DNA of 64,000 nucleotides from NCBI RefSeq assembly GCF_051903065.1, contig NZ_CP178438.1. One strand, written 5' to 3'. The translations under genes and the position numbers were made by a program. The notes under the pieces were generated by a model that worked only from the letters and a program-made list of their open reading frames with translations, was not told the origin of the DNA and searched no databases. Positions 13,616 to 47,634 of this stretch are shown here, piece after piece. This stretch comes from Escherichia coli. Lineage in GTDB: Bacteria > Pseudomonadota > Gammaproteobacteria > Enterobacterales > Enterobacteriaceae. How positions within the stretch are numbered: the stretch's first letter is position 1; the number at the start of each line of letters is the position of its first letter.

Positions 13616-14521
13616 ATGAAAAAGTTATTACCCTGTACCGCACTGGTGATGTGTGCGGGAATGGCCTGCGCACAGGCCGAGGAAAAGAACGACTGGCACT
13701 TTAATATCGGCGCGATGTACGAAATAGAAAACGTCGAGGGTTATGGCGAAGATATGGATGGGCTGGCGGAGCCTTCTGTCTATTTTAATGCCGCCAACGG
13801 GCCGTGGAGAATTTCTCTGGCCTATTATCAGGAAGGGCCGGTAGATTATAGCGCGGGTAAACGTGGAACGTGGTTTGATCGCCCGGAGCTGGAGGTGCAT
13901 TATCAGTTCCTCGAAAGCGATGATTTCAGTTTCGGTCTGACCGGCGGTTTCCGTAATTATGGTTATCACTACGTTGATGAACCGGGTAAAGACACGGCGA
14001 ATATGCAGCGCTGGAAAATCGCGCCAGACTGGGATGTGAAACTGACTGACGATCTACGTTTCAACGGTTGGTTGTCGATGTATAAATTTGCCAACGATTT
14101 GAACACGACCGGTTACGCTGATACCCGTGTCGAAACGGAAACAGGTCTGCAATATACCTTCAACGAAACGGTTGCTTTGCGAGTGAACTATTATCTCGAG
14201 CGCGGCTTCAATATGGACGACAGCCGCAATAACGGTGAGTTTTCCACGCAAGAAATTCGCGCCTATTTGCCGCTGACGCTCGGCAACCACTCGGTGACGC
14301 CGTATACGCGCATTGGGCTGGATCGCTGGAGTAACTGGGACTGGCAGGATGATATTGAACGTGAAGGCCATGATTTTAACCGTGTTGGTTTATTTTACGG
14401 TTATGATTTCCAGAATGGTCTTTCCATTTCGCTGGAATACGCGTTTGAGTGGCAGGATCACGACGAAGGCGACAGCGATAAATTCCATTATGCAGGTGTC
14501 GGCGTAAATTACTCGTTCTGA
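13616..14521 (+). CDS. ompG: Outer membrane porin OmpG (301 aa)
   Basis: Signal peptide MKKLLPCTALVMCAGMACA, beta-barrel sequence, C-terminal …VNYSF. Confidence 0.9.
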   Translation: MKKLLPCTALVMCAGMACAQAEEKNDWHFNIGAMYEIENVEGYGEDMDGLAEPSVYFNAANGPWRISLAYYQEGPVDYSAGKRGTWFDRPELEVHYQFLESDDFSFGLTGGFRNYGYHYVDEPGKDTANMQRWKIAPDWDVKLTDDLRFNGWLSMYKFANDLNTTGYADTRVETETGLQYTFNETVALRVNYYLERGFNMDDSRNNGEFSTQEIRAYLPLTLGNHSVTPYTRIGLDRWSNWDWQDDIEREGHDFNRVGLFYGYDFQNGLSISLEYAFEWQDHDEGDSDKFHYAGVGVNYSF

Positions 14522-14529
14522 TAATGGGC

Positions 14530-14594
14530 TAAATTGCCGGATGCGGCGCGAGTACTTTATCCGATCTATAAATGTAGGCCGGATAAGATGCGCC
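14530..14594. repeat. REP/BIME palindromic units downstream of ompG; the second unit is split by the IS at 14595 and resumes at 16028
   Basis: gccggatgcggcg… and gtaggccggataagatgcgcc | IS | gccagcatcgcatccggc; removing the IS and one GCC copy gives a palindrome gccggataagatgcgccagcatcgcatccggc. Confidence 0.75.
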
Positions 14595-15121
14595 TGAACT
14601 GCACCCCAAATGTTGGACATAATCTGACATCTGAAGGTGCAGTTTATGAAACATTCATTTGAAGTAAAACTTGCCGCTGTAAATCATTACCTGGCCGGTC
14701 ATGCAGGCATCATTTCTACGGCAAAACTCTTTCAACTTTCTCACACCAGCCTCTCACACTGGATTAATCTTTTTCTTCTTCACGGTCCTCAGGCACTGGA
14801 TTGCAGACACAAGCGTAGCTATTCTCCTGAAGATAAACTTTGCGTGGTTCTTTATGCTCTCGGGCATTCTGAGTCTCTACCCCGGGTAGCTGCCCGGTTT
14901 AACATTCCCAGCCACAACATGGTTAAAAACTGGATAAAAGGCTACCGCAAATCTGGTAATGAGGCCTTTATCAGGCGCAGGAAGGAGAAAAGCATGACCC
15001 GTTCTGATGATACCCATGAAAACGAGGCAAACATGACGCCGGAAGAGATGAAGAATGAGCTGCGTTATCTTCGCGCAGAAAATGCATATCTGAAAGCCAT
15101 GCAGGAGCATCTCCTGGAAAA

Positions 15122-16020
<899 letters not shown>

Positions 16021-16066
16021 TGTTCAGCCAGCATCGCATCCGGCATTCAGGCAAGGTCGCTGGTAT

Positions 16067-17065
16067 TTATTTCAGCGTCATATGCGTGGCAACGGTAATA
16101 TTTTGTGGTGACGGTTTTCCGGCAATTAAGCGGAATAATAACTCACAGCTTTGTTGACCTAACTCCTGCGTCGGAACATCGATGCCGCCCGGTGCAGGCG
16201 TTAAAATAAATGACAGCGTTTCATTGCTATAACCCACCACCGCTAACTGCTGCGGAATAGCAATGTTTTTCTCTGCCGCCGCACGATAAATGCTCATTAA
16301 TTTCAGGCTGTCAGTGGCAAACACTGCCTCAGGCAACGGTGACTGACTTAATAATTGCCGTGCTGCTTGCAGTGCTGTTTCATGGGTATAACCGCCATCA
16401 ACAATCCATTCATCACGCACTGCAATATTATGATCTTCCAGACTCTGCTTATAACCATTTACCCGATCCACTGAAACATGGACATCAAGCGGTGCATGCA
16501 GACAGGCAATATTTTGATGTCCACTTTCAATTAACGCATCGGTCAACGCAATGCTGTCACCAAAATTATCGGTATCGACAGAATAAACATGGGCATATTG
16601 ACCTTCAACTTTGCCAATCACCACCACAGGAATATCGTATTTATCAAGTTGCGCAAAAAATGACTCATCCGCTGGCGAACTTAGCATAATAATGCCTTTA
16701 ATCATTTTCTGCTTAATTTTGCTTTCACATTTTTGTAAGTCTTCTGCCGGGTTGTGCGACGTCTGCAATATCACGTCGAAACCTTCTTCTTCCGCTTTGG
16801 CGGTGATGGCATGTAGAACCTCTGAGAAAAACGGATTACCCGCCGTAGTTTTGGTTGAACGGGTAGAAATCACCATAATGGCATCAAAACCCGAAGAGGT
16901 CAGCGCGCGGGCCAGCTTGTTTGGCTGATACTGTAATTCTTCAATGGCCCGTAACACTTTTTCGCGCGCTTCCGGGGAGATATTAGTTTGCTTATTCAGC
17001 ACGCGTGATACGGTGGATTTTGATACGCCTGCAACCCTGGCAATATCATAAATAGTAGGGGACAT
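16067..17065 (-). CDS. ycjW: LacI-family transcriptional regulator (332 aa)
   Basis: N-terminal [27 protein letters not shown] and periplasmic-binding-like domain. Confidence 0.85.
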
Positions 17066-39086: not shown

Positions 39087-39094
39087 AACTGCAT

Positions 39095-39188
39095 AAAAAA
39101 ATAGAGTCTGTCGACATCCGCCAGACTCTACAGTACACACAGCAGTGCATCCGCGTCTTAAATCCGGCATTGTCTCCTCTGCGCCGGT
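39095..39188 (-). ncRNA. mcaS: sRNA McaS (IsrA)
   Basis: Minus-strand sequence ACCGGCGCAGAGGAGACAATGCCGGATTTAAGACGCGGATGCACTGCTGTGTGTACTGTAGAGTCTGGCGGATGTCGACAGACTCTATTTTTTT matches my memory of McaS; terminal hairpin plus T-run on the minus strand. Confidence 0.75.
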
Positions 39189-42565: not shown

Positions 42566-42687
42566 GCAGGTGAATGCAACGTCAAGCGATGGGCGTTGCG
42601 CTCCATATTGTCTTACTTCCTTTTTTGAATTACTGCATAGCACAATTGATTCGTACGACGCCGACTTTGATGAGTCGGCTTTTTTTT
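42566..42687 (+). ncRNA. fnrS: sRNA FnrS
   Basis: GCAGGTGAATGCAACGTCAAGCGATGGGCGTTGCGCTCCATATTGTCTTACTTCC… ending in hairpin gccgactttgatgagtcggc plus T7; matches my memory of FnrS and its location between zntB and dbpA. Confidence 0.8.
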
Positions 42688-47269: not shown

Positions 47270-47496
47270 TGAATAAATCCTTTAGTTATTTTATTTGCCT
47301 TTTATCCCCATTTCGGGGAGTGAAAACATCCTAAAGGAGAAGTTCAGTTAGCCGATAAATATCATTTGTTACGCCTTAAGTAAAACCTTAATCAAATAAT
47401 TCCTCTGAAATGATAATAAGTCTGGTGAATGTATCGAAGATAATACATACAAAATAAAAATTATACTTTTAATTTTCTATACGTTATTCTGCGCGG

Positions 47497-47608
47497 GTTA
47501 TATGCCTTTATTGTCACAGATTTTATTTTTTGTTGGGCCATTGCATTGCCACTGATTTTCCAACATATAAAAAGACAAGCCCGAACAGTCGTCCGGGCTT
47601 TTTTTTAG
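47497..47608 (+). ncRNA. micC: sRNA MicC
   Basis: GTTATATGCCTTTATTGTCACAGATTTTATTTT… ending in hairpin gcccgaacagtcgtccgggc plus T8; matches my memory of MicC, which lies between ompN and ydbK. Confidence 0.8.
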
Positions 47609-47634
47609 AATTGGATAATCCTTATCCAGAGCAT

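Follow-up and report, generated by a model that had tools for sequence, protein, structure and literature searches.

The slippery heptamer A AAA AAG near the end of orfA is, with high confidence, the programmed −1 ribosomal frameshift signal of a complete and apparently functional copy of the insertion sequence IS1397. The copy lies in a 64,000-nucleotide stretch of Escherichia coli DNA, here called the window (Table 1). The sequence and phase of the heptamer, the open −1 frame, the domains of the fused product, the family assignment, the annotation and both candidate stimulators are all present. That ribosomes do shift at this heptamer, and with what efficiency, is argued by analogy with IS150, IS911 and dnaX. 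The site itself is not new, as RefSeq annotates it and the literature lists it, and the current understanding of IS3-family recoding is left unchanged by a finding that is correct but ordinary. The sole modest addition is that the IS1397 site is displaced from the position used by its family and is accompanied by different stimulators.

Table 1. Features of the IS1397 copy and of its frameshift region, in window coordinates
Feature	Position	Strand	Basis	Description
IS1397, complete copy	14595-16026	+	megablast	1432 bp; IS3 family, IS150 group
Target-site duplication	left 14592-14594, right 16027-16029		empty-site comparison	GCC, 3 bp
IRL	14595-14619	+	20/25 match to the reverse complement of the right end	25 bp; begins 5'-TG (TGAAC...)
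IRR	16002-16026	+	20/25 match with IRL	25 bp; ends CA-3' (...GTTCA)
orfA	ATG 14646 to TGA 15165-15167	+	ORF list	173 aa; helix-turn-helix DNA-binding part and C-terminal heptad-leucine region
Shine-Dalgarno (SD)-like AGGAG	15103-15107	+	sequence	candidate upstream stimulator; 11 nt before the first base of the heptamer
Slippery heptamer A AAA AAG	15119-15125	+	sequence; invariant in 8 sampled IS1397 copies	
orfB part of the fusion	15125-15994	+	Pfam	−1 frame; 289 codons and stop; HTH_21, rve DDE core, rve_2
Predicted hairpin	15129-15166	+	RNAfold	38 nt; candidate downstream stimulator; 3-nt spacer past the heptamer
Second A run, G AAA AAA C	15140-15147	+	sequence	OrfA frame; in the hairpin loop; non-canonical X XXY YYZ
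Catalytic residues	D295 = 15527-29; D355 = 15707-09; E391 = 15815-17; K398 = 15836-38	+	alignment	

The IS1397 copy and its insertion site

Megablast matches covering at least 80% of the query were found in 1707 of 5426 complete E. coli genomes. The matching copies carry the RefSeq label ‘IS3-like element IS1397 family transposase’ at an identity of 99.9–100%, and NZ_AP045789.1 has a copy that is 100% identical over 1361 bases. IS1397 occupies up to 40 places per E. coli genome, in copies that are 97.9–100% identical to each other, and is found only once in the window. Its ends have the features of the IS3 family: terminal inverted repeats of the TG...CA type and a short target duplication, which is 3 bp here where 3–4 bp are expected. 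When the element and one GCC were removed, the 500-nt reconstructed empty site was 100% identical to the ompG–ycjW spacer of several O157:H7 genomes, and it was found at a coverage of at least 80% in 4965 genomes; this match to other genomes fixes both the boundaries of the element and the GCC duplication. Given its intact ends, the 3-bp duplication and the matching empty site, the window copy looks recently transposed.

IS1397 has inserted at the centre of a REP palindromic unit between ompG and ycjW, with gccggataagatgcGCC on the left of the element and GCCagcatcgcatccggc on the right. Once restored, the REP palindrome reads gccggataagatgcGCC joined directly to AGCatcgcatccggc and is imperfect, and the flanking sequences on either side thus place the insertion in the loop of an imperfect palindrome. 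Insertion of IS1397 into REP elements is experimentally proved according to PMC1525189, and the REP-centre position of the window copy agrees with this reported targeting. A second REP, diverged and in the opposite orientation, lies about 10 nt upstream (tgccggatgcggcgcgagtactttatccgatc; region 14534–14594 and 16027–16045), so that the target of IS1397 is a BIME-like pair between ompG and ycjW. The neighbouring genes are ycjT, pgmB, an ABC ATPase gene and ompG on one side, and ycjW and ycjX on the other. Only a few genomes share the ompG–ycjW insertion (H1–H3, megablast); at this locus IS1397 is a strain-variable insertion in a REP element.

Within the element, the window copy is set apart by position 15162, which is A here and G in all 7 other sampled IS1397 copies. 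With A, residue 173 of OrfAB is Asn rather than Ser and OrfA ends in Thr rather than Ala, and 15162 is the one base by which the window copy differs from the copy in ECNB21-M121. A simple sigma-70 scan upstream of orfA gave no convincing promoter, and hand inspection for a circle-junction promoter of IS1397 found just 3 of 6 matches per hexamer.

Some other E. coli strains carry IS1397 copies that PGAP marks as ‘frameshifted’, among them those of Nissle (L013) and MS8320 (L012). The Nissle copy is a pseudogene with a 5-nt deletion, CTGGC (= 15209–15213), just upstream of the ARSTLYY motif.

Reading frames and the fused transposase

The RefSeq CDS starts at the equivalent of 14646, with GTG 14637 as an alternative start of orfA, and Pfam HTH_28 covers residues 8–57 of OrfA. 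In the −1 frame, the last upstream stop is at 15056–15058; from 15059 the frame is open up to the stop TAA at 15992–15994, giving an overlap with OrfA of 109 nt (15059–15167) and placing orfB in the −1 frame, as the IS3 family requires. An earlier note on this DNA had placed the heptamer in the OrfA frame shortly before its stop and had described the −1 frame as open from there into the DDE domain. Sequence and phase of the heptamer agree with that description, the heptamer lies inside the OrfA/OrfB overlap, and the −1 frame runs without a stop through LARSTLYYQ and the entire catalytic domain. A stop codon between the heptamer and the DDE motifs, which the note had named as the observation that would speak against it, does not occur. 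The longest ORF with a start codon in the −1 frame begins at GTG 15272, beyond the N terminus of HTH_21, and a functional transposase therefore needs the OrfAB fusion.

For the conceptual fusion, 14646–15125 was translated and the sequence then re-read from 15125, yielding a product of 449 aa. It matches the NCBIfam model transpos_IS3 over its full length (389 bits at a cutoff of 160; model positions 1–369 of 369) and contains, in addition to HTH_28, the Pfam domains rve (E-value 2.9e-21), rve_2 (1.4e-20) and HTH_21 (2.3e-17), which bears out the proposed IS3-family OrfAB fusion. None of D295, D355, E391 and K398 varies when the product is aligned with 13 relatives (A1), and their spacing is that of IS3-family DDE transposases: 35 residues lie between D355 and E391, and K398 follows seven residues past E391. 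Judged from its translation, the transposase of the window copy looks intact and the copy apparently functional. The earlier suggestion that the gene is translationally intact gains support from these four residues as well as from the annotated product of the window allele, which is present in NCBI.

In RefSeq (PGAP), the CDS of the gene is in two pieces and bears the note ‘programmed frameshift’. At the junction, the annotated fusion proteins read either ...LLEKK-APGAG... or ...LLEKK-PPGAG..., and among the retrieved IS1397 proteins ...EKK-PPGAG... (n = 110) is more frequent than ...EKK-APGAG... (n = 19). On the DNA (AAG CGC CAG), the APGAG version corresponds to G15125 being read twice, as slippage on A AAA AAG predicts, whereas the PPGAG version requires C15126 to be read twice; the two readings thus show that the annotated join stands either at the heptamer or one base 3' of it. 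WP_225343597.1 is the exact heptamer-site fusion of a sister copy that is 1 nt apart. For the window allele, an exact look-up in the protein collection returned no entry when the fusion was made at G15125, and the same allele fused one base later (C15126 twice, ...KKPPGAG...) is present there. The one-base difference in the fusion point is annotation convention, not biology, and the Pro at residue 161 of most RefSeq IS1397 proteins is probably an artefact of join placement.

The element also appears in the survey of Sharma et al. 2014 (NAR 42:7210, PMC4066793), as the cluster ‘A_AAA_AAG_5: Fam IS3/grpIS150/IS1397 [true]’, in which ‘[true]’ means that −1 frameshifting ‘can be safely inferred’ (PMC4066793). 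Table S8 of that survey lists for this cluster an SD-like sequence in 100% of 59 genes and a hairpin in 100% of the same 59 genes, the latter with a length of 38 nt, a spacer of 3 nt and a first stem of 4 bp. Reduced synonymous variability was not found in A_AAA_AAG_5, because the divergence within the cluster is just 0.02 (PMC4066793). The mechanism put forward in the earlier note is thus the one that both the RefSeq ‘programmed frameshift’ CDS and the A_AAA_AAG cluster already record. A search of the literature outside the original IS1397 reports found no measured frameshifting for this element.

The slippery heptamer

The orfA codons at the site are CTG GAA(15117) AAA(15120) AAG(15123) CGC. 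Every orfA codon begins at a position divisible by 3, which puts the heptamer in the A AAA AAG phase needed for tandem −1 slippage. No other in-frame X XXY YYZ occurs in the 109-nt overlap, and the heptamer ends 40 nt before the OrfA stop; Sharma et al. 2014 (PMC4066793) count A_AA.A_AA.G as one of the motifs most efficient in E. coli. About 1.7% of random 109-nt stretches with the composition of the element contained an in-frame A AAA AA[G/A/C], and about 13% contained some in-frame X XXY YYZ; moreover, AAAAAAG is observed 24 times on both strands of the window, where about 8 are expected. With these chance rates and this many occurrences, the heptamer alone is weak evidence; it becomes significant because it is correctly phased, falls within the overlap and is conserved in relatives. 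The 8 sampled IS1397 copies likewise show no variation in AGGAG or in either A run, but these copies are just 0–2% divergent, so that conservation and covariation among them are uninformative for structure. A shift at the family-equivalent position, CTG AAA GCC (15090–15098), was ruled out, as the sequence there is not slippery.

The two A runs sit in a 21-nt near-repeat, equivalent to one heptad, at 15117–15158 (GAAAAAAAGCGCCAG... and GAGAAAAAACGAAAG..., encoding EKKRQEL and EKKRKSS). The database fragments P0008 and P0013 read ...EKKAPGAGEKRKSS, which implies one additional A in the first run and one A fewer in the second, either in the copies or in the reads.

An extra A in the A7 run (15118–15124) would also put orfA and orfB in frame, and it could be supplied by RNA polymerase slippage rather than by the ribosome. 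The inserted A gives GAA AAA AAA GCG CCA, which encodes a peptide identical to that of the ribosomal slip (...EKKAPGAG...), and fusion of orfA and orfB via transcriptional slippage does occur in IS elements (PMC1088944). P0008 and P0013 further indicate that A runs are unstable in length at some level, in replication, sequencing or both. However, the documented IS cases involve about 9 A or T, a length at which selection against slippage shows (PMC1088944), compared to 7 A here. The motif has exactly the phase expected for tandem slippage, an SD-like sequence and a hairpin stand on either side of it at distances that affect ribosomes, and the same heptamer acts by ribosomal slippage in IS150 and in E. 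coli dnaX. We consider transcriptional slippage very unlikely as the source of the fusion.

But what about the second A run? The −1 frame is open at both runs, and a shift occurring wholly or substantially at 15140–15147 would produce an OrfAB of the same length, with the junction ...EKKRQELEKK-TKVIQ.... This run is also invariant in the sampled IS1397 copies, contains an in-frame A_AA.A tetramer, a type of motif that can promote −1 shifting according to Sharma et al. 2014 (PMC4066793), and is followed by a stronger predicted hairpin (15169–15222, −19.9 kcal/mol). It does not, however, form a canonical X XXY YYZ, and the P-site tRNA must re-pair on GAA. The stronger hairpin starts 22 nt past the run, outside the 4–10 nt range, and contains two natural variants (15171 G>A, 15202 T>C); the run itself falls within the loop of the hairpin that belongs to the first site, and both RefSeq and Sharma et al. 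put the shift at the first run. As the main site or as a substantial contributor the second run is highly improbable, while as a minor alternative shift site it is possible.

Candidate stimulators of frameshifting

The heptamer A AAA AAG, the preferred shift site, has candidate stimulators on both sides. Upstream, the GGAG at 15104–15107 is located 12 nt before base 15120, which fits the SD criterion of Sharma et al. Downstream, the stem-loop whose presence the earlier note had suggested checking is found as a predicted hairpin with the outer stem CAGG/CCUG (4 bp), the inner stem CUGGAGA/UC(A)UCCAG and an 11-nt A-rich loop. Its RNAfold energy is −11.7 kcal/mol in the window allele, and −13.1 and −12.4 kcal/mol in two other alleles. 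Under the hairpin rules of Sharma et al. 2014, a structure starts 4–10 nt past the motif, has a G-C pair first and at least 3 further pairs, and has a dG of at least 7.6 kcal/mol. Here, the first paired base is 4 nt past the motif and the pairs are C-G, A-U, G-C and G-C, in agreement with these rules. The hairpin was predicted before the comparison with the published table and has the same size, spacer and first stem.

With 0.31 kcal/mol per nt, compared to a mean of 0.45 for IS3-family hairpins, the hairpin is at the weak, short-spacer end of the published range. Of 160 sliding 38-nt windows, 9 fold at least as well, this hairpin being among them, and the 100 nt downstream of the heptamer have a z-score of −1.9 versus shuffles. 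The variants found in the hairpin among IS1397 copies change one A-U to G-U or fall at several unpaired positions. An Rfam scan of 14400–16200 at E<=1, with the frameshift-element families included, gave no match.

A different hairpin, CUCCUGG(15111–17)/CCAGGAG(15129–35) at −10.5 kcal/mol, competes with the 38-nt hairpin as an alternative fold; it holds the heptamer in its loop and cannot act as a downstream barrier. The region contains three mutually complementary segments, CAGGAG (15102–07), CTCCTG (15111–16) and CAGGAG (15129–34). If CTCCTG pairs with the upstream segment (−8.0 kcal/mol), the SD-like sequence is masked; if it pairs with the downstream one (−10.5 kcal/mol), the heptamer is left in the loop. 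Both folds compete with the 38-nt hairpin.

Relatives and a proposed turnover of the recoding cassette

Relatives were collected by a scan of genome contigs, in which every retained locus outside E. coli is at most 57% identical to IS1397. In a search of 50%-representative proteins the next cluster was at about 50% identity to IS1397, and a protein word search filled with near-identical IS1397 sequences. Neither the contig scan nor the protein searches yielded intermediate relatives, and ISKpn1 is not among the retained loci.

In 62 distinct relatives of the IS150 group, such as IS150, ISKpn8, ISEnfa3 and ISBce15, an in-frame A AAA AAG or A AAA AAA is present in the orfA/orfB overlap. It is embedded in the motif ENAYL-KK-L and precedes the RST.YY motif of OrfB by 104–131 nt (mostly 116), compared to 89 nt in IS1397. 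At the family site, IS1397 reads ENAYL-K-A-M and has no heptamer (15084–15125 compared with L003–L096); its own is found 27 nt further 3'. Most relatives also feature a long hairpin, GCCUUAGUUCA...UGAACUAAGGC, 5–7 nt past the heptamer. In 46 aligned sequences (A3), this family hairpin is 91% paired and 8 of its 13 pairs have changed in a compensatory manner, and pairing drops to 22–43% in a control in which the partner is slid by 1–3 columns. Both of its arms are coding: one encodes ALVQ in OrfA, the other YELR in OrfB.

Although it probably operates in the manner of IS150, IS1397 is without this IS150-type cassette, and the regions equivalent to the arms do not pair on inspection of the sequence. 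Its own hairpin has a 3' arm that falls in part on the stretch corresponding to the 3' arm of the family hairpin, and relatives at about 55% identity have a hairpin different from that of IS1397. Site, SD-like sequence and hairpin of IS1397 appear to be lineage-specific. We somewhat favor the view that the IS1397 lineage swapped its recoding cassette: the ancestral ENAYL-KK-L site and its hairpin would have been lost, and a new heptamer 27 nt (9 codons) downstream, a new SD-like sequence and a new short hairpin gained. If this is true, the turnover is a clean natural example of frameshift-signal replacement within one transposase gene, and OrfA and OrfAB share nine more leucine-heptad residues than in the relatives.

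Changes at the family site are also seen elsewhere in the group. Three loci from Pseudomonas spp. (L049, L082, L084) read ENA[YV]LKE and lack the canonical heptamer, and two of them feature G AAA AAG or G AAA AAA just upstream of the orfA stop. The loss of the canonical site in these three relatives suggests that cassette turnover recurs. In several copies from Pseudomonas asuensis (L017–L019, L029), orfA and orfB are in one frame (ENAYLKQARSLG...), and a frameshift is not needed.

The position of the IS1397 heptamer off the usual family site can also be read in a different way: the heptamer could be an inactive relic, in which case the copy would make separate OrfA and OrfB-like fragments and be immobile. 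True pseudogene copies do exist in E. coli, as in Nissle with its 5-nt deletion and in MS8320 with its ‘frameshifted’ copy. The window copy, however, is without a disabling mutation and combines intact ends with a target duplication and a matching empty site. The near-identity of IS1397 copies and the number of places that they occupy per genome point to recent spread, and insertion of the element into REP sequences is the experimentally proved behavior cited above (PMC1525189). Despite the position of the heptamer, these observations make an inactive relic extremely improbable.

Discussion

On the reading that A AAA AAG is the active recoding signal, most ribosomes translating orfA would stop at 15165–15167 and release the 173-aa DNA-binding protein OrfA. 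In a minority, tRNA-Lys on AAA (15120–22, P site) and on AAG (15123–25, A site) would slip back together by one base onto AAA AAA (15119–24), and decoding would restart at GCG (15125–27). The product would be the 449-aa OrfAB transposase with its DDE core, reading ...LLEKK-APGAG... at the fusion point (junction peptide LLEKKAPGAGEK). Two elements probably stimulate the shift: the AGGAG at 15103–15107, with which the 3' end of 16S rRNA would pair 11 nt upstream, and the 38-nt hairpin that is predicted to begin 3 nt downstream of the heptamer. The resulting balance of OrfA to OrfAB would limit transposition.

How does this compare to known systems? The published IS1397 cluster (A_AAA_AAG_5) represents the same element and shares the heptamer, the SD-like sequence, the 38-nt hairpin, the 3-nt spacer and the 4-bp stem with the window copy; the differences are just allelic. 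The closest parallel with a described frameshift signal is IS150 (Vogele et al. 1991, cited in PMC4066793), which belongs to the same subgroup and likewise has A AAA AAG in the orfA/orfB overlap, a downstream hairpin and an OrfAB (InsJK-type) DDE transposase, although its OrfA is about 28% identical to that of IS1397. The IS150 heptamer lies in YL-KK-LKAL; its hairpin is 48 nt long, opens with a 10-bp stem and is separated from the heptamer by 6 nt, and there is no SD. In IS1397, by contrast, the heptamer is displaced by 27 nt in the 3' direction, a smaller and less stable hairpin follows after a 3-nt spacer, and an SD-like sequence is present.

In their arrangement of signals, dnaX, IS911 and IS1397 are alike, as in all three A AAA AAG stands between an SD-like sequence on its 5' side and a structure on its 3' side. 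The dnaX gene is unrelated, and its shift yields a shorter product; its SD is positioned about 10 nt before the heptamer. Apart from IS1397, IS911 is the one IS cluster for which Sharma et al. 2014 score an SD and a hairpin as both conserved, but it belongs to the IS3 group and its structure is larger (57 nt, spacer 6).

For the annotation of the window, this means that the ORFs at 14646–15994 are one transposase gene with a programmed frameshift, not a pseudogene, and that the IS copy is potentially mobile. Beyond this locus, the displaced IS1397 site may help the study of how recoding signals evolve.

Additional observations

A 39-nt piece from the 3' coding part of IS1397 (15962–16000) has a 97% match downstream of the ISAs1-family pseudogene yhhI, before yhhJ. 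The spot is unannotated, and the match occurs in K-12, ATCC 8739 and many strains without any other IS1397 match; it may be a relic of IS1397 or a chance similarity. Elsewhere in the 64-kb window, no tRNA genes were found, and three RNAs score above the Rfam gathering score: McaS (39093–39188, minus strand), FnrS (42566–42683, plus strand) and MicC (47494–47614, plus strand).
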